Below the pieces are notes generated by a model. It worked only from the letters and a program-made list of their open reading frames with translations, made no database searches and had not been told where the DNA came from. Source: Bacteroidia bacterium (GTDB taxonomy: Bacteria; Bacteroidota; Bacteroidia; NS11-12g; UBA955). From it: a stretch of 64,000 nt of DNA. A program made the position numbers and the translations under genes. Positions 20,623 through 61,707 of this stretch are shown here, piece after piece. How positions within the stretch are numbered: the stretch's first letter is position 1; the number at the start of each line of letters is the position of its first letter. The stretch spans positions 64,772-128,771 of the forward strand of contig JAMNXP010000004.1 in assembly GCA_023653095.1 (NCBI GenBank), read 5' to 3'.

Positions 20623-20855
20623 ATCGGTGATCAGCCGTCAGCTCTCAGCTCTCACCTCTCAGCCGTCAGCCGTCAGCCGTCAGCTCTCAGCTCTCAGCTC
20701 TCAGCAACGCCAAAGGCGTAAAGCAACGCGAAGCGTTAGTCTCTAAGTCACAAAGTCTCCGGCGAAGCCGCTAGCCGTCATCCGTCAGCCAAAGACCAAT
20801 GACCAAAGACCAAGGACCAAAGACCAATGACCAAAGACCAAGGACCAAAGACCTA
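20623..20855. repeat. composite heptanucleotide tandem-repeat element, locus A
   Basis: 11 in-phase TCAGCNN units (20631-20707), then a core with three triloop hairpins (20707-20719, 20725-20737, 20760-20770), then 9 in-phase AARGACC units (20791-20853). Fills the whole gap between two convergent stop codons. Confidence 0.95.
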
Positions 20856-52287: not shown

Positions 52288-52962
52288 ATGAGAAAAATTC
52301 TATTTGGTTTGGCTCTGGCCATTGCGGGAACGACTGCGGCGCAGAATTACAATCCCAACTCAAAAAACACCCTTGAGGTCAATATCAACCTTCAAACAGG
52401 CACCAGCCCTATAAGCTTCGATGCTCCTAGCCTTCGCCTAAGAAGATTCATCAAAGACGATCTCGCTCTTAGAGCTTTGGTGGCCGTTTCCACATTCTCT
52501 AACACAGACCGTATTTATGATGCAGGCAATCGCGCCAATTTTGGCATCACCACACAGAACAACTGGAATTTCAACATTGGTGTGGGCGTAGAAAAACACA
52601 TAAAATCTACCGAAAAACTAAGCGCCTATATTGGTGGTCAAGTTATGTTCGCTACGGGTGGAGGATCATTTAAAGGAACCAACACCACCAACGGTTTCAA
52701 CTATGTCTCAGGAGGTGAATTTAAAAACTCTATTTCTGGGGGATTTGGATTCGGACTTATGGGCGTTTTTGGAGCAGACTACTATTTCACCAAAAACATC
52801 TACGTAGGAAGCGAAATCTCTTTCGGCTACACCTACCAATTCAACGGATATCAACTCAACTGGAATAATCAAACAAACACCGCCACCGAATCAAAACTCA
52901 CCACTTCCATGGGCCTCGGCATTGCCGTTAATCCAGGCGTGAGATTGGGTGTGAGGTTTTAG
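52288..52962 (+). CDS. outer-membrane beta-barrel (porin family) protein
   Basis: Signal peptide MRKILFGLALAIAGTTAAQ, Gly/aromatic strands, C-terminal RLGVRF. Confidence 0.7.
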   Translation: MRKILFGLALAIAGTTAAQNYNPNSKNTLEVNINLQTGTSPISFDAPSLRLRRFIKDDLALRALVAVSTFSNTDRIYDAGNRANFGITTQNNWNFNIGVGVEKHIKSTEKLSAYIGGQVMFATGGGSFKGTNTTNGFNYVSGGEFKNSISGGFGFGLMGVFGADYYFTKNIYVGSEISFGYTYQFNGYQLNWNNQTNTATESKLTTSMGLGIAVNPGVRLGVRF

Positions 52963-53207
52963 TCCTTGGTCCTTGGTCCTTGGTCCTTGGTCTTTGGTCG
53001 TTGGCTAACAGCTTTCAGCTGTCAGCGGGCAGCTATCAGCCGACAGCCGACAGCCGACAGCCGACAGCCGACAGCCGACAGCCGACAGCCGACAGCCGAC
53101 AGCCGACAGCCGACAGCCGACAGCCGACCACCGACCACCGACCACCGACCACCGACCACCGACCACCGACCACCGACCACCGAACACCGAACACCGATCA
53201 CCGGCTA
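52963..53207. repeat. composite heptanucleotide tandem-repeat element, locus B
   Basis: In order: TCCTTGG x4, then 2 variants, then CAGCNNN x4, then 12 perfect CCGACAG (53040-53123), 8 perfect CCGACCA (53124-53179), CCGAACA x2, CCGATCA and CCGGCTA. Phase is unbroken over 53009-53207. Spans stop to stop between convergent genes. Confidence 0.95.
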
Positions 53208-55657: not shown

Positions 55658-55950
55658 TCAGCCATCAGTAGTCAGCTGTCAGCACTCAGCACTCAGCGGT
55701 CGGCGGTCAGCTTTCAGCGATCAGCGGGCAGCGGTCAGCGGTCTGCGGTCAGCGATCAGCACTCAGCACTCAGCACTCAGCCGTCAGCCGTCAGCGGTCT
55801 GCGGTCAGCTTTCAGCGGTGGCTATGCCGAAAAGCTGCACCGAAGGTGCCAAGCAACGCAAAGGGCAAGTCCTAGCGAAGCGTGAGTCCCATAGTCACAG
55901 ACAAAGCCATCAGCCAAGGACCAAGGACCAAAGACTAAAAACTAAGGTCT
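55658..55950. repeat. composite heptanucleotide tandem-repeat element, locus C
   Basis: 23 in-phase TCAGCNN units (55658-55818), a core with GCACC-GAA-GGTGC (55837-55849) and GCGAAGC (55875-55881) hairpins, then AAGGACC-type units (55916-55950) running into the stop codon of the next gene. Confidence 0.95.
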
Positions 55951-56629: not shown

Positions 56630-56783
56630 TCAGCTTTCAGCGGACAGCCGTCAGCGGTCAGCCTTCAGCGGTCAGCTTTCAGCGGTCAGTCGTCAGCGAT
56701 CAGCCGTCAGCCGTCAGCCATCAGCTGAAAGCTGATAGCCCTCTAAACTCTTAACTCTAAACTCTTAACTCTCCCCTCTACTC
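56630..56783. repeat. composite heptanucleotide tandem-repeat element, locus D
   Basis: 14 in-phase TCAGCNN units (56630-56727), a 7-bp-stem hairpin ATCAGCT-GAA-AGCTGAT (56720-56736), then six TCTNNNC units (56742-56783: TCTAAAC TCTTAAC TCTAAAC TCTTAAC TCTCCCC TCTACTC). Confidence 0.95.
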
Positions 56784-57137
56784 CCCCCTGGTCAGACTCA
56801 CATATCCATGCCTCGTCCACTGACTCATGATCTCGCACTCTGCCGGCGTGAGGCTCAGCGTTTCAGTTAGTTCACCAGTAATTCCGTTAGCGAAGATGGT
56901 GCCAATGGTATCAATCTCCCATCGAAGCATGAGCCGGTCCCAATGAAGACTTCCTTCGCACACCAACACCCCCGATGGGCGATAAAAATGTGCAATGATA
57001 ACCTCCTCACCTCCGCCCTCTCCGCCATTATTTCGGTCCTTTGGCGGACGCGTCCCTCCACCACCTCTGTCTTTTTCGGGGGATGTTTTTTCGGGGGATG
57101 TTTTGACGGCGATTGTTTCTAAGGTGGACATTGGCAT
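56778..57137 (-). CDS. orphan hypothetical protein, GC-rich relative to surroundings
   Basis: 119-aa ORF with a low-complexity Gly/charged N-terminus, including a 15-nt perfect tandem duplication (57075-57104, KTSPE x2). Coding status unproven. Confidence 0.4.
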   Translation of the reverse strand: MPMSTLETIAVKTSPEKTSPEKDRGGGGTRPPKDRNNGGEGGGEEVIIAHFYRPSGVLVCEGSLHWDRLMLRWEIDTIGTIFANGITGELTETLSLTPAECEIMSQWTRHGYVSLTRGE

Positions 57138-57294: not shown

Positions 57295-58371
57295 TTACAT
57301 AAATCTTATTTGAAGATTCAATTTGAAATAAAAATTCCCGTTTTCCTGATAGATTTTTCCAAAGTTGTATCTTGAAGTACTGGGTGTTTCAAGACGGGAA
57401 TTATTAAATAGGTAATTTTCAAACTCATTTTTGTGGTAAATATGATAACAAAGAACGTCACCTGTTTCTTTTACAACTAAATAACCGCCGTTTGCCTGAT
57501 AGTTGCCGTCCCACACCTTACTTGGGGTCATTCCCAACGCGACATCAGTTAAAAACTTCTTCATTTTATACGCATAGAATGAATGAGAATACCTGTTGTC
57601 GTATCCCAATGGATTACTAATGGCTATTTTCTCACAGATCTCTACAAGGTTCTTGTTATTGTATTTATATCCAAATATCAATAATTCCGCAATGATGTCG
57701 GGCAACCTACTATCAATCAAAATTAAATTATTTTCAAAAATTGGCTCTTCAATTCTGACAAATTCTAGGTAACCACCAACTTGATAAATTTGATTAACTC
57801 GATCAACAACTTTTGATTTCGTTTCGATAAAATTTATATCAAATAAATTATTCAGATCTTGAATATTATGACAAACTTTAAAAATAAAATTAGTTCCATT
57901 TCCTGCATTCAACAATGTAGATTCACTACCTAATTTTGATTTTATACTAAATCCAAGATCAACATTTGACGATACATGTTGATCATAGACAACAATTCGT
58001 ATATCAGTCTTTGAGGTAGATTTTGCTTTCAGCGAATTACAATAAATTGAATCTAAAAATGATTGGATTTCGGGCAATATAAAGGCCCCATTTTCCTTCT
58101 TTATTGCGGCAAGCAATTTTCCAGCTTGTTCTGAAAATACGGCTACATTTATTTTTAATGGTGCTTTTTCATTTCCAGAAATCAAAACAATCTCTCCATC
58201 TATTTCATACTCAAAATTTCCACCACTCTCCTCCCTAATAATCTTAATAATTGGATAAAAAATTTCTTCTACTCTATTTAAATTACCATCACCCAATAAC
58301 AATTCACCATCACCCAATAACTTTAAAAGTGTATAAATTTCACTCCATTCACCTTTGTTTCCCTTTAGCAT
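57295..58371 (-). CDS. HpaII family type II restriction endonuclease
   Basis: 358 aa. The N-terminus MLKGNKGEWSEIYTLLKLLGDGEL matches the characteristic start of the HpaII REase family. ATG overlaps the methyltransferase stop (ATGCTAA). Confidence 0.75.
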   Translation of the reverse strand: MLKGNKGEWSEIYTLLKLLGDGELLLGDGNLNRVEEIFYPIIKIIREESGGNFEYEIDGEIVLISGNEKAPLKINVAVFSEQAGKLLAAIKKENGAFILPEIQSFLDSIYCNSLKAKSTSKTDIRIVVYDQHVSSNVDLGFSIKSKLGSESTLLNAGNGTNFIFKVCHNIQDLNNLFDINFIETKSKVVDRVNQIYQVGGYLEFVRIEEPIFENNLILIDSRLPDIIAELLIFGYKYNNKNLVEICEKIAISNPLGYDNRYSHSFYAYKMKKFLTDVALGMTPSKVWDGNYQANGGYLVVKETGDVLCYHIYHKNEFENYLFNNSRLETPSTSRYNFGKIYQENGNFYFKLNLQIRFM

Positions 58372-59672
58372 AATTCTAACTTTCTTAAAATTTCAAAAGC
58401 CGTTGCTCGAATTGCTGGAACTGCGACAGAATTACCAAATTGTTTATACGCACTTGCATCAGAAACAGGTATAATAAAATTATCAGGAAAACCTTGAAGT
58501 CTAGCCCATTCACGAGGAGTCATTTTTCTGATACCTAATTTATTTACTTCTCCTTTGATTTTTGTTGTTGGAGTAAAGTCAGTAATTCGATCATCTACAA
58601 CCAAATTCCTTTCTCTTCCCATTCCGCCGCATACAACAGCATTCGCCACCTCCAGATCACCTATAATCTGATATCCAAATCCATTTCCTTTCTCCTCATG
58701 CCGCTTCTTATGATTTTCTAATGTCCATAAATATTGCGTTGACAAGTAATACCTAGTATCAACTGGCTTCGATTCCCTTATATCTATAAAGCTCAACCGA
58801 TCTGAATATGGTTCTGGGTAACGAAAAAATTCATCCTTAATATAATTCTTGTGAAAAGCAACGATATAAATTCTTTCTCTGTTTTGAGGAACTCCATAAT
58901 CCCTAGCATTTATTATTTGAGGATCGGGAACATAATAATTCAAATCCTCTCTGAGTACATTCAAAATAGTCGCCAAGGTCTTACCCTTATCATGATTTCT
59001 TAATCCCTTGACATTTTCCAGAAAAACTGCTTTGGGTCTTTTTCTTCTAATGATTTCAGCAACATCAAAAAATAAAGTCCCTCTAGTATCTTCGAACCCT
59101 CCTCTTCGCCCAGCAATAGAAAATGCTTGACAGGGAAAACCTGCACATAAAACATCAAAATCATCAGGAATTTCTGATTTATTTGCTTCATCGGTTATAT
59201 CACCAAATGGAATATCTCCGAAATTATTGAAATAGGTTTTTTGAGCGTCAGTATCCCATTCACTTGAATATACACAATCTCCGCCCAATGATTGAAGTGC
59301 CAACCTAAAACCACCAATTCCGGCAAATAAATCAATAAATCTGAATTTAGGTTGTAAATCTTTTTGAAAAGGTAAATTTCGCAAAACGCATTGTAATTCA
59401 AAATAAAAATCCACTATGTTTAACTGAGGTTTAATTTGAGATAAAAGAATAATATCATTTTGAATGTCTCTACTTAGTTGTTCAAAAGATAAATTAATTT
59501 TCCTTCCGATAACATGAGTTATCCTCGCCAATTTCTGATTGATTACTTCTTTATCATTTGCAAATATTTTATTAGTCTTATTCGAAAACAAATCGTTTGC
59601 AGTCAACAGAATATTGCAACCATTTTCATATTCCACTAATTTGTCCCGAACAACATGCTTCTTTTGACCCAT
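58365..59672 (-). CDS. DNA (cytosine-5)-methyltransferase with roughly 100-aa N-terminal extension
   Basis: Motif I FRFIDLFAGIGGF, IV GFPCQAFS, VI ENVKGL, VIII QNRERIYIV, X QFGNSVAVP. ATG at 59672; an alternative TTG at 59705. Confidence 0.95.
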   Translation of the reverse strand: MGQKKHVVRDKLVEYENGCNILLTANDLFSNKTNKIFANDKEVINQKLARITHVIGRKINLSFEQLSRDIQNDIILLSQIKPQLNIVDFYFELQCVLRNLPFQKDLQPKFRFIDLFAGIGGFRLALQSLGGDCVYSSEWDTDAQKTYFNNFGDIPFGDITDEANKSEIPDDFDVLCAGFPCQAFSIAGRRGGFEDTRGTLFFDVAEIIRRKRPKAVFLENVKGLRNHDKGKTLATILNVLREDLNYYVPDPQIINARDYGVPQNRERIYIVAFHKNYIKDEFFRYPEPYSDRLSFIDIRESKPVDTRYYLSTQYLWTLENHKKRHEEKGNGFGYQIIGDLEVANAVVCGGMGRERNLVVDDRITDFTPTTKIKGEVNKLGIRKMTPREWARLQGFPDNFIIPVSDASAYKQFGNSVAVPAIRATAFEILRKLELC

Positions 59673-59795
59673 ATAATTTTCTATTACAAATACTTGATTG
59701 TTCAAAAATAAGAGGTCATTTCTTTAAAACTATGGTAAACAAACATAAATAAATCCATTTGTTTTGCACTTTATACAACTACATCACCAACTAGC

Positions 59796-60794
59796 ATGTC
59801 ACTCTCTTACCTGCAGCTCAGAGAATACCTCGAAAGGCAAATGAAGATGAGCCACATCTATCAGCCAGTAATGATAAGAAGGTTGCTGTTAGATGGGGGT
59901 GTTTCGGAGGACAAATCTATTGCCGCTGACCTCTCTGCAAAAGATCCTAGCCAAATTGACTATTACACAGAGCGCGTCAATAACATGGTGGGGAAAGTTC
60001 TACGAAAAAATGGAGTTGTAACTAAAGAGAAAAATCTATACCTACTTGAAAAAGTTACCGAATTATCATCCCAAGAAATCAATGAATTGGTAGAACTTTG
60101 CGATAACAAGATCAATCAATACCTAGAAAAGCGAAACCTCGACATTTGGGAGCATCGCAACCGCACCCGCAGACCCATTTCTGGAGATGTTATTCATCAG
60201 GTATTGGAACGCGCAAAAGGCCGATGCGAACTTTGTGGCATCAAAAAGGAAATTAAACACTTGGAAGTTGATCATATTGTTCCCAAAAGTTTGGGTGGCG
60301 TTGACTCCATCCACAATTACCAAGCACTTTGTTACAGCTGCAACTCCCGAAAAGGCAACCGCTACTCCACTGACTACCGCACACTTGGTCAAATCTTCGA
60401 AGAACGACAACATTATTGTTTATTCTGTGGGACATCAAACGCCGAATTTTCCTCCCGCATTATACATTCTAACCATCTTGCTGTTTGTATTGAAGATGCT
60501 TTTCCGGTTACCGACGGACATAGCCTTATTATCCCTAAAAGGCATTTTGCCAACTACTACAATATAGAATCGGCCGAACTCAGCGCCACACATGAACTAA
60601 TAAAGTTGAGACAAAAAGAACTCATTAAAAAAGACTCAAGCATCACAGGTTTCAACATGGGTATAAACCAAGGAATTGACGCAGGACAAACCATTTTTCA
60701 TTGTCACATTCACCTCATTCCACGCCGCCAAAACGACGTTCCAGCACCCCGCGGAGGCGTCAGAAATATCATTCCAAATAAAGGAAACTATTGA
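59796..60794 (+). CDS. three-part fusion: helical (winged-helix-like) N-domain + HNH nuclease + HIT-family hydrolase
   Basis: HNH/zinc motif CELCG...EVDHIVPKSLGG...NYQALCYSCNSRKGN. HIT domain LIIPKRH...GFNMGINQGIDAGQTIFHCHIHLIPR. N-terminal 125 aa unassigned (SHIYQPVMIRRLLLDGG). Confidence 0.85.
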   Translation: MSLSYLQLREYLERQMKMSHIYQPVMIRRLLLDGGVSEDKSIAADLSAKDPSQIDYYTERVNNMVGKVLRKNGVVTKEKNLYLLEKVTELSSQEINELVELCDNKINQYLEKRNLDIWEHRNRTRRPISGDVIHQVLERAKGRCELCGIKKEIKHLEVDHIVPKSLGGVDSIHNYQALCYSCNSRKGNRYSTDYRTLGQIFEERQHYCLFCGTSNAEFSSRIIHSNHLAVCIEDAFPVTDGHSLIIPKRHFANYYNIESAELSATHELIKLRQKELIKKDSSITGFNMGINQGIDAGQTIFHCHIHLIPRRQNDVPAPRGGVRNIIPNKGNY

Positions 60795-60835
60795 AAATAC
60801 ACATCTATTTAATATACAATCATTTAACTAGGTCG

Positions 60836-60893
60836 TTTGTAACAAAGCGAACCCAATTTCTTCCATTTTTTGTAACAAAGCGAACCCAATTTC
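60836..60893. repeat. 25-bp perfect direct repeat, two copies, 33-bp period
   Basis: TTTGTAACAAAGCGAACCCAATTTC at 60836-60860 and 60869-60893, separated by 8 nt. Each copy contains the palindrome TTGTAACAA. Confidence 0.9.
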
Positions 60894-60996
60894 GGTGATC
60901 GGTGATCATTCGTCAGTGGTCAGCTCTAAACTCTGAATTCTAAACTCGCTGCTCTCCCCTCCCATCCAAAGACCAAGGACTAAAACCCTAAAACCT
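60894..60996. repeat. composite heptanucleotide tandem-repeat element, locus E (short)
   Basis: CGGTGAT x2, then CGTCAGTGGTCAGC, six TCTNNNC units (60925-60966: TCTAAAC TCTGAAT TCTAAAC TCGCTGC TCTCCCC TCCCATC), then AAAGACC AAGGACT AAAACCC TAAAACC running into the stop and C-terminus of the next gene. Confidence 0.9.
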
Positions 60997-61630: not shown

Positions 61631-61634
61631 ATAG

Positions 61635-61707
61635 TGGTATCGGGCGGAATCGAACCGTCGACACAAGGATTTTCAGTCCTTTGCTCTACCAACTGAGCTA
61701 CGATACC
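61635..61707 (-). tRNA. tRNA-Phe (anticodon GAA)
   Basis: Reverse complement: GGTATCGTAGCTCAGTTGGTAGAGCAAAGGACTGAAAATCCTTGTGTCGACGGTTCGATTCCGCCCGATACCA. Perfect 7-bp acceptor stem, D-loop AGTTGGTA, anticodon loop CTGAAAA, T-loop TTCGATT. One A-C mismatch in the T stem. CCA not encoded. Confidence 0.95.

Follow-up and report, generated by a model that had tools for sequence, protein, structure and literature searches.

Type IV restriction enzymes of the winged helix-HNH (wH-HNH) class carry a winged helix N-terminal to an HNH nuclease in one chain, and they occur as solitary genes with no cognate methyltransferase. A second group of type IV enzymes is built from a modular reader and an HNH nuclease and comprises ScoMcrA, SprMcrA (SBD-SRA-HNH, in which SBD is the sulfur-binding domain), TagI (SRA-HNH), and EcoKMcrA. 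The SBD with which the ScoMcrA-type enzymes read phosphorothioate (PT) DNA is a winged helix-turn-helix (wHTH) (PMC10853773). SauUSI-type enzymes attack DNA that contains 5-methylcytosine (5mC) (PMC3141236), and NUDIX genes are their conserved partners, with a role that is unexplained (PMC3141236, PMC3312211). The stretch of Bacteroidia bacterium DNA analyzed here (64,000 nucleotides of contig JAMNXP010000004.1, hereafter the window) encodes a protein in which a winged helix, an HNH nuclease domain, and a nucleotide hydrolase domain of the histidine triad (HIT) type are joined. By fold order and solitary occurrence, the wH-HNH class appears to be its nearest known kind. The protein is likely a solitary defense-type nuclease that is independent of the restriction-modification (R-M) system next to which its gene lies. 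The gene and its modules are arranged as follows:

59796..60794, plus strand: complete coding sequence of the wH-HNH-HIT protein, ATG start, 332 amino acids plus stop (open reading frame (ORF) list, full-length homologs, and the ratio of nonsynonymous to synonymous substitution rates, dN/dS)
59796..60065, plus strand: N-terminal helix and winged-helix module, residues 1-90 (AlphaFold2 model, conservation)
60069..60167, plus strand: long connecting α-helix, residues 92-124, a likely spacer or coiled-coil (DSSP on both AlphaFold2 models)
60183..60380, plus strand: HNH (ββα-Me) nuclease with a four-cysteine zinc site, residues 130-195, Pfam core 144-190
60408..60740, plus strand: HIT nucleotide hydrolase/transferase domain, residues 205-315 (Pfam, PDB, Foldseek)
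60741..60791, plus strand: conserved C-terminal tail, residues 316-332, with P318, G320-G321, R323, P327, and Y332

A preliminary description, made from the sequence alone, had proposed this three-module architecture of an N-terminal module, an HNH core, and a complete HIT domain. It is confirmed by Pfam, by the individual residues, and by the modeled winged helix. The HNH domain reaches 50 bits for PF01844 (residues 144-190, E 3e-13), for which the cut-off is 21.4, and PF14279 of the HNH superfamily also scores above its threshold (47.4 bits against 27.5). The zinc ligands C144, C147, C179, and C182, the catalytic D159-H160, and N174 and N183 are all in place. In NCBIfam and PADLOC only domain-level matches are found, which in the HNH region are to IscB, Cas9, PtuB, PDC-M01B, and type IV/II restriction endonuclease (REase) models. 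The closest named models or structures are IscB, Cas9, EcoKMcrA, and PtuB, and the EcoKMcrA HNH domain (6ghc) matches at E 1.5e-4. By profile and residues, the protein is thus assigned to the HNH superfamily, and metal-dependent DNA cleavage is predicted.

HIT proteins are obligate homodimers and act as hydrolases or transferases on nucleoside-monophosphate-X (NMP-X) compounds. The HIT domain of the window protein reaches 66 bits for PF01230 (residues 217-312, E 5e-18), for which the cut-off is 21.5, and its PDB matches are Hint, Fhit, and bacterial HIT proteins (best E 1e-17). HinT, ATP adenylyltransferase, and ThsC2 are the NCBIfam and PADLOC matches. A Foldseek search with the full-length AlphaFold2 model returns HIT proteins only (Ap4A phosphorylase, Fhit, Hint), with a Foldseek probability of 1.0 and a root mean square deviation of 1.5-3 Å over ~95-110 residues. 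The domain harbors C208-x-x-C211, H242, N287, Q298, and the triad H302-x-H304-x-H306. It shares with the Hint/Fhit/bacterial HIT branch (2eo4, 3imi, Hint1, Fhit, Rv2613c) the full fold, the N-terminal CxxC, and the H-x-H-x-H-x-x motif followed by P-R. It differs from this branch by its fusion to a nuclease and by a conserved extra tail that none of the 40 housekeeping HITs examined has. Across an alignment of 52 family members, the listed residues of both domains, zinc ligands included, are invariant or nearly so; H302, H306, H242, N287, and Q298 are invariant, and H304 is kept in at least 90% of sequences. Profile, fold, and triad mark the domain as Hint/Fhit-type, for which NMP-X hydrolase or transferase activity and homodimer formation are predicted.

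The N-terminal module has no Pfam match (residues 1-130), and its sequence profiles find no match above chance level in PDB, Pfam, or PHROGs. Its AlphaFold2 model (residues 1-128) reaches a predicted local distance difference test score (pLDDT) of 89 and a predicted template modeling score (pTM) of 0.81. The model takes on helices at 3-15 and 22-32, a short strand at 36-38, and helices at 39-46 and 51-71, followed by a β-hairpin wing (75-78/81-84) and the long helix 92-124. Foldseek retrieves generic winged-helix proteins only (MarR/OhrR, E2F-DP, Sso10a, CprK), all at E > 0.1. The "winged-helix-like" label of the preliminary description therefore holds at the fold level. No DpnI-, HhiV4I-, or SBD-type entry is among the top 50 Foldseek matches. 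The best viral fold match (BFVD) is the N-terminus of an 850-amino acid AAA ATPase (TMq 0.67, E 2e-3), which hints, on modeled structures, at McrB-like fusions. The family alignment shows invariant positions at Y22-Q23-P24, M26, G35, I42, D50, Q53, Y56, M64-V65-G66, and L69. On the model, the module is a distinct winged-helix subfamily. A weak signal of RE_HaeII in the N-terminus was dropped, as it appeared in 3 of 27 members (best E 0.001) and was absent in 7 further members.

Compared to the described wH-HNH type IV enzymes, the window protein therefore has a winged helix without detectable sequence similarity and without a DpnI/HhiV4I-type structure among its top fold matches. Its HNH domain is Cas9/IscB-like with four cysteines. 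It additionally carries a long helix and a complete HIT domain, and the members described for that class include none with a HIT domain. The EcoKMcrA and SRA enzymes differ in that the window protein possesses neither an SRA domain nor the EcoKMcrA N-terminal domain, and the PT restriction model lies far below its cut-off.

The family to which the protein belongs is large. A database search with the full-length query yields 5,508 matches at E <= 1e-3, stand-alone HIT and HNH proteins included. The best 120 of these are 311-340 amino acids long, share 50-98% identity with the query across at least 95% of its length, and are each annotated with HNH and HIT. A typical family member has ~325 amino acids, at identities of 45-68%. 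An exhaustive HMMER search with the winged-helix profile finds 1,688 clusters at 50% identity, the best 150 of which are fragments or members of the same family only. A metagenome scan finds 533 relatives, of which 80 loci were retained, each with a match spanning at least query residues 8-315, and viral contigs (IMG/VR) hold 7 full-length relatives. Genome contigs scanned with the single protein contain mostly stand-alone HIT genes and full-length relatives only in L001 and L002, and tblastn finds no full-length relative in 50,697 annotated phage genomes and 72,556 plasmids. Members are spread over Bacteroidota, Pseudomonadota, and Bacillota and come mostly from aquatic metagenomes. The same architecture is found in the best 120 homologs, the 80 metagenome loci, and the 7 viral-contig loci. 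Compared with a copy of 96.6% DNA identity on contig L071, the window gene has 32 nucleotide and 6 amino acid differences and a pairwise dN/dS of 0.08. The uniform architecture and the dN/dS rule out a fusion of two genes by sequencing error; the family is conserved and under selection. None of the families in PADLOC, NCBIfam, or PHROGs extends over the protein from end to end, and searches of the accessible literature found nothing on HNH-HIT fusions or on HIT proteins in restriction. This is in line with the earlier statement that no characterized member has such an architecture, and no characterized precedent was found for a Hint-type hydrolase fused to a restriction-type nuclease.

The gene is transcribed divergently from a two-gene R-M cassette, which is laid out as follows:

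57295..58371, minus strand: HpaII-family REase gene (PF09561, E 9e-132)
58365..59705, minus strand: C5-methyltransferase (C5-MTase) gene (PF00145, E 2e-98)
59706..59795, no strand: gap of 90 bp between the divergent methyltransferase gene and the wH-HNH-HIT gene, partly a recombination scar
59774..59794, plus strand: remnant of the 3' end of a SauUSI-like gene, 21 bp (YNYITN and the stop codon TAG), separated from the ATG by one base

The preliminary description took the gene as a third component of this operon that shares a 90-bp divergent promoter region with it. Pfam confirms the operon, and the 90-bp gap is real; part of the gap, however, is the scar of a replacement. The copy on contig L071 (P0001, 98% identical at the protein level) starts one base after a SauUSI-like gene of the architecture PLDc_2-DEAD/ResIII-Helicase_C-DUF3427, which is itself preceded by a NUDIX gene, and the HpaII-type cassette is absent there. 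DNA homology between L071 and the window is limited to window positions 59774-60892; it begins 22 bp before the ATG and ends ~100 bp downstream of the stop codon. The 21 bases before the ATG (TACAACTACATCACCAACTAG) are identical to L071 3360-3380, which are the last six codons and the stop of the SauUSI-like gene (YNYITN*). The GC contents also differ, being 0.311 for the REase gene, 0.336 for the methyltransferase gene, 0.422 for the wH-HNH-HIT gene, and 0.399 for the window. GC contrast, L071 context, and homology limits together argue that the adjacency to the R-M operon is not functional. The SauUSI-like remnant before the ATG implies that the low-GC HpaII-type cassette replaced a NUDIX and SauUSI-like cassette. 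Judged from these sequence comparisons, the R-M cassette is a newcomer swapped in beside a resident wH-HNH-HIT gene and is evolutionarily independent of it. The swap makes biological sense because a C5-methylase would conflict with a SauUSI-type enzyme that attacks 5mC DNA. As the wH-HNH-HIT gene was kept through the swap, it appears to tolerate C5 methylation by the neighboring methylase (presumed specificity CCGG). The locus is a clean example of cassette replacement in a defense island, with a type IV system going out, a C5-methylase R-M system coming in, and the nuclease retained. A scan of the locus for sigma-70 promoters and terminators gave nothing above shuffled expectation, with tool models that do not cover Bacteroidota-type promoters. 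The C5-MTase ORF has a TTG start and an extension of ~115 amino acids before the Pfam domain (residue 121); its true start may lie downstream, which would widen the gap.

One role originally suggested for such a third component was to stand in for Vsr as a nickase that senses mismatches or methylation, the HIT domain cleaning up DNA ends as in aprataxin. The gene is indeed adjacent and divergent to a C5-MTase gene in the window and in L002. A survey covered the flanks (618 kb with 713 neighbor ORFs, clustered) of 94 family loci after removal of redundancy; a C5-MTase lies within the available flanks in 7 of these loci, versus none of 68 HIT-only control loci around housekeeping HIT genes (Fisher p = 0.02). 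This modest enrichment is, however, at the level expected of defense-island clustering alone, and 87 of the 94 loci lack a C5-MTase, so that a consistent linkage of the homologs to C5-MTases does not stand up. The protein has no match to Vsr (PF03852), and in locus L072 the family gene coexists with a C5-MTase, a genuine Vsr (PF03852), and an MvaI/BcnI REase. A role as Vsr-type partner of C5-MTases is rejected on these grounds, and one as component of an HpaII-type R-M operon for want of a shared history (GC content, L071 context, scar). Aprataxin is similar by analogy in that a HIT domain is joined to a zinc-binding, DNA-directed module, and a role at DNA ends is conceivable. The aprataxin module, however, is a C-terminal C2H2 finger, whereas the zinc module of the window protein is its N-terminal HNH nuclease. 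The window protein ends 26 residues after the triad without a zinc finger, its HIT domain is Hint/Fhit-like, and no aprataxin is among the 60 listed of 73 PDB matches at E <= 1; an aprataxin-type deadenylase is therefore rejected. With the GC contrast, the scar, and the copy beside a non-methylase cassette added, the R-M component explanation is exceedingly unlikely.

The survey instead places the family among variable defense and mobile-element genes, and no neighbor cluster exceeds 12 of the 94 loci (<=13%). The recurrent neighbors are:

Serine recombinases, 12/94 loci
HNH_2 endonucleases, 8/94 loci
C5-MTases, 7/94 loci
Uncharacterized 160-amino acid protein, translationally coupled upstream, 7/94 loci
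MazG-like pyrophosphohydrolases, 6/94 loci
Tyrosine integrases, 6/94 loci
Sel1-repeat proteins, 6/94 loci
SauUSI-like enzymes, 4/94 loci
SRA-HNH enzymes as direct neighbors, 4/94 loci
NUDIX proteins, 3/94 loci
GIY-YIG-Schlafen-helicase proteins, 3/94 loci

Among 11 contexts annotated with Pfam, 7 have recognized defense genes within 8 kb. These are SauUSI-like with NUDIX; GmrSD_N with HEPN and EcoRII R-M; MvaI/BcnI R-M with Vsr and an MZB helicase; SIR2-TPR with DUF4365; NERD; SIR2_2; and MazG with a Schlafen-type helicase. Two of the 11 lie in an integrative and conjugative element (ICE) or beside an integrase. A recurrent defense-type or recombinase neighbor is found in 25 of the 45 metagenome or genome loci with at least 5 kb of flank. 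The more general suggestion of the preliminary description, that the gene is a defense-type component, is borne out by these variable neighborhoods.

A part in the maintenance of mobile elements or phages (a packaging- or homing-type HNH protein with an accessory HIT domain) or in DNA repair has to be weighed against the same data. In the lineage of L092 and L088 a phage small-terminase (Terminase_4) gene immediately precedes the family gene, and this linkage and the 7 IMG/VR copies suggest carriage by prophages. A maintenance function would fit these copies and the terminase linkage of L092, the serine recombinase or tyrosine integrase neighbors in 15 of the 94 loci, the SRAP genes near two loci, and the existence of phage families for both the tail-type HIT (phrog_19494) and the partner-type HNH (phrog_338) discussed below. 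Packaging HNH proteins, however, are small and have neither reader nor HIT domains. Full-length relatives are absent from the annotated phage genomes and plasmids searched, no repair operon is conserved around the gene, and the recurring neighbors are mainly restriction and defense genes, which are common cargo of prophages and ICEs. A non-defense role is accordingly considered improbable.

The coupling between the HNH and HIT activities extends beyond the fusion protein. The HIT domain belongs to a subfamily with the full tail pattern D-x-x-x-P-x-GG-V-R-x-x-I-P-x-K-x-x-Y, and 92 of 98 family ORFs match H-x-H-x-H..PR...P-x-GG-[VIL]-R, versus none of 40 housekeeping stand-alone HIT ORFs from the control loci. 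None of these 40 control HITs has an HNH gene within two genes. A tblastn search of plasmids finds stand-alone HIT proteins that match through the C-terminal tail, and a database search shows, with roughly 7,400 matches, that the stand-alone tail-type HIT is a large family in its own right. In a split form, the tail-bearing HIT is a gene of 106-133 amino acids directly beside a Cas9-type HNH gene of ~340 amino acids. In Polaromonas (pPNAP03) and Aromatoleum (plasmid 2), an HNH gene of 340-351 amino acids comes directly after the HIT gene, which it overlaps by 4 nt in Aromatoleum. On Hymenobacter and Persicobacter plasmids and in a metagenome lineage, an HNH_4 gene of 338-345 amino acids precedes a 121-amino acid HIT gene, with a gap of 0-3 nt. 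Two tail-less plasmid HITs have no HNH neighbor. The partner HNH proteins of the four plasmids compared form one family with the Cas9-like HNH core of the window protein. The occurrence of a fusion in one lineage and of tight operons in both orders elsewhere argues that the HNH and HIT activities act together. As far as the searchable literature and libraries show, there is no earlier description of the fusion of HIT to the nuclease, of the HIT subfamily with the tail, or of the split operons.

Profile-profile alignment of the split-operon HNH partners covers the HNH core only, and no relation of their N-termini to the winged helix was found; a resemblance of "SHIYQPVM" to "SATYKFAL" is unsupported by it. 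In phages, phrog_19494 corresponds to the tail-type HIT and phrog_338 to the partner-type HNH; tblastn with the partner HNH gave no match in annotated phages. The Hymenobacter HNH-HIT pair lies 1.5 kb from a NUDIX and SauUSI-like pair, and the Pseudoalteromonas partner HNH abuts a SauUSI-like gene. On an Acinetobacter lwoffii plasmid (L262 2863-4502) the HIT slot is taken by a 196-amino acid class I S-adenosylmethionine (SAM)-methyltransferase gene with a 3-nt gap, beside a type I-F CRISPR-Cas locus. On a Marinomonas plasmid (L264) the neighbors of the HNH gene are a WYL regulator gene and genes of the McrB/McrC type. In Streptomyces phage phiSASD1 (L244 4045-5372, gp3-gp4), gp4 is a tail-type HIT that is 42% identical to window residues 207-332; it directly follows a PAPS-reductase/PP-loop (DndC-superfamily) protein and is near a dNMP kinase. 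This context hints at a role of the tail-HIT subfamily in nucleotide or DNA-modification metabolism.

The phiSASD1 gene order also bears on a PT variant of the model. Here, the winged helix would be a divergent sulfur-binding wHTH, the HNH domain would cleave PT-DNA, and the HIT domain would desulfurate deoxynucleoside monophosphorothioates (dNMPS), which would keep PT nucleotides from recycling into host DNA. HINT1 also desulfurates dNMPS, turning dGMPS into dGMP (PMC8775712), and the SBD of PT-dependent HNH enzymes is a wHTH, as described above. The invariant hydrophobic/aromatic cluster of Y22, P24, M26, and M64 could form a pocket, and there is a faint NCBIfam match to the PT-DNA restriction endonuclease model NF045808 (E 0.06). 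This match, however, scores only 12.5 bits where the cut-off is 180, and it spans the linker helix and HNH region (residues 108-179) instead of the winged helix. Neither the PDB profile search nor the top 50 Foldseek matches include an SBD structure. Membership in the PT-dependent SBD-HNH family is therefore rejected, and the PT variant as a whole is very unlikely.

About half of the loci have a tightly coupled upstream gene. In 38 of 80 loci the preceding gene is on the same strand at a distance of no more than 50 bp, and these genes vary, examples being a full GmrSD enzyme, WYL/PafC-type HTH regulators, Schlafen-type helicases, or another HNH protein. In one subclade (L125, L140, L144, L161) a ~160-amino acid upstream protein overlaps the start of the family gene by 4 nt. 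It is also present at L121, L146, and L120, has no Pfam or PHROG match, and contains an "IIYTVF...YIYVGIGG" stretch reminiscent of GIY-YIG nucleases.

The variable upstream genes would fit an abortive-infection effector gated by a nucleotide, and a nucleotide-directed effector was also among the possibilities named in the preliminary description. In this rival explanation the HIT domain binds or hydrolyzes an alarmone or phage-induced nucleotide (Ap4A, another NpnN, or NMP-X) and thereby licenses a non-specific HNH nuclease, with the winged helix providing general DNA affinity; in a variant of it, different upstream sensors could all use the protein as their effector. The solitary occurrence of the gene and its location in defense islands are in line with such an effector. 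The SAM-methyltransferase in the HIT slot of the Acinetobacter split-system relatives suggests an accessory that handles small molecules. In PADLOC, the HNH region shows weak profile similarity to Septu PtuB and the candidate PDC-M01B (E ~5e-6), and the similarity of the HIT domain to Thoeris ThsC2 (E 7e-9) is likewise weak. The HIT protein ThsC accompanies some Thoeris systems (PMC8565338). These similarities are domain-level matches only; PtuA, ThsA/B, and PDC-M01A are absent from the window and the surveyed loci, and membership in Septu, Thoeris, or PDC-M01 is rejected. No cyclase or other signal-generating gene is consistently near in the 94-locus survey, and the strong conservation of the winged-helix surface points to a specific ligand and less to DNA binding of a generic kind. 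To our knowledge, HIT active sites are catalytic and not regulatory in every characterized member. An abortive-infection effector is thus an unlikely explanation, albeit one that deserves to be kept in mind. The protein is not aprataxin, Vsr, or a member of the PT restriction family, nor is it part of Septu, Thoeris, or PDC-M01.

The preferred reading of a solitary type IV-like nuclease can be put together as follows. The winged helix would bind DNA and read a feature of foreign DNA, for example a base or backbone modification. The long helix would act as a spacer between this reader and the Cas9/IscB-type, zinc-stabilized HNH domain, which would nick or cleave nearby. The HIT domain would homodimerize and so pair two reader-nuclease arms, such that both strands are cut. 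As a live enzyme, it would also hydrolyze a nucleoside-monophosphate-linked compound tied to the nuclease reaction. For the composite of a winged helix that reads a foreign-DNA mark, an HNH domain that cuts, and a HIT domain that dimerizes and hydrolyzes a nucleotide-linked by-product, the chances are about even.

The separate parts of this reading differ in strength, a solitary defense-type nuclease independent of the R-M system being more probable than modification dependence or any particular HIT substrate. The published argument for wH-HNH enzymes can be applied here, namely that a stand-alone winged-helix nuclease must target modified DNA to avoid self-toxicity. The invariant putative recognition surface and the lack of a cognate methyltransferase or immunity partner make a mark of foreign DNA, such as a base or backbone modification, the most likely thing to be read, as in the known wH-HNH and SBD(wHTH)-HNH type IV enzymes. 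Modification dependence itself, argued from solitary occurrence and analogy, is a tentative proposal with somewhat less than even prospects. C5-MTases co-reside with the gene in the window and at 7 other loci; the protein is thus compatible with C5 methylation and unlikely to be a general 5mC-dependent enzyme. It is doubtful that the HIT domain is an enzymatic partner of the nuclease with a nucleotide-linked restriction product as its substrate. In one variant, it would destroy recycled modified nucleotides (dNMP derivatives, dNMPS) and spare the host DNA from being marked. In another, it would strip AMP from 5'-adenylated nicks or from ligase-AMP and block the resealing of HNH cuts by a phage ligase.

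The proposed HIT role would parallel that of NUDIX proteins and MazG pyrophosphohydrolases, which are paired with SauUSI-like and Schlafen-helicase genes in the same islands. A NUDIX-SauUSI pair adjoins the family gene in L071, L085, L147, and L254. It is similar in that a modification-dependent nuclease is coupled to a nucleotide hydrolase; it differs in that both activities have other folds, are encoded by two genes and not by a fusion, and act on different compounds, as NUDIX proteins use (d)NTPs and Hint-type HITs use NMP-X compounds. In L254 (5803-12227) a MazG-like gene and a Schlafen-type helicase gene are followed by the wH-HNH-HIT gene and then by a SauUSI-like and a NUDIX gene in convergent orientation. 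Each of the three nuclease or helicase genes in this island thus has its own kind of nucleotide hydrolase, which suggests a general pairing rule.

Several points weigh against this reading. Two of the 11 annotated contexts (L081, L251) have plain housekeeping flanks, and most metagenome loci are short. Given the tight upstream coupling in 38 of 80 loci, the protein could conceivably be a shared accessory of different upstream systems. The winged helix matches neither the DpnI/HhiV4I readers of N6-methyladenine nor the SBD in PDB profiles or the Foldseek top 50. In the full-length AlphaFold2 model (pLDDT 79, pTM 0.45) the domains are confident and the interdomain arrangement is unreliable, so that the dimer geometry comes from general knowledge of HIT proteins. 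We know of no Hint-type HIT that is a dNTP pyrophosphatase, and the NUDIX/MazG analogy is therefore thematic and not chemical.

If the reading is right, the family is a very widespread single-gene defense nuclease that is in no defense catalog searched (PADLOC, NCBIfam, PHROGs). If the HIT domain does act on a nucleotide-linked restriction product, the family and the split HNH/HIT operons would define a class of type IV-like immunity in which a nuclease is combined with a nucleotide hydrolase, and the NUDIX-SauUSI and MazG-helicase pairings would be explained by the same principle. SauUSI was reportedly described in 2011, and the reason for its pairing with NUDIX is said to have been open since; knowledge of the HIT substrate could help explain the frequent association of modification-dependent nucleases with nucleotide hydrolases. 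If the winged helix is a new DNA-modification reader, it would be useful as a reagent.

Further features surround the block formed by the wH-HNH-HIT gene and the R-M cassette. Heptamer (7-bp) tandem arrays of the CAGCCGA/GTCAGCG/TCAGCCG types, with 5-21 copies, occupy several intergenic regions (52962-53203, 55671-55819, 56630-56780, ~60895-60950, and 20659-20684 in the window; 4518-4564 in L071). They lie at the left flank of the R-M block and downstream of the wH-HNH-HIT gene in both the window and L071, and they may be recombination boundaries for cassette exchange. The arrays yield spurious "PTADSRQ"-type ORFs on both strands. A candidate glycine-rich ORF of 119 amino acids (56778-57137, minus strand) without a Pfam or PHROG match lies between a heptamer array and the REase gene, and a terminator-like hairpin is found within it at 57064-57082. 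A tRNA-Phe gene (61634-61707, minus strand) lies ~0.8 kb from the wH-HNH-HIT/R-M block and may be the edge of the variable island. It is overlapped on the same strand by a SOUL heme-binding ORF (from 60980; first start codon at 61666), the real start of which is probably downstream.

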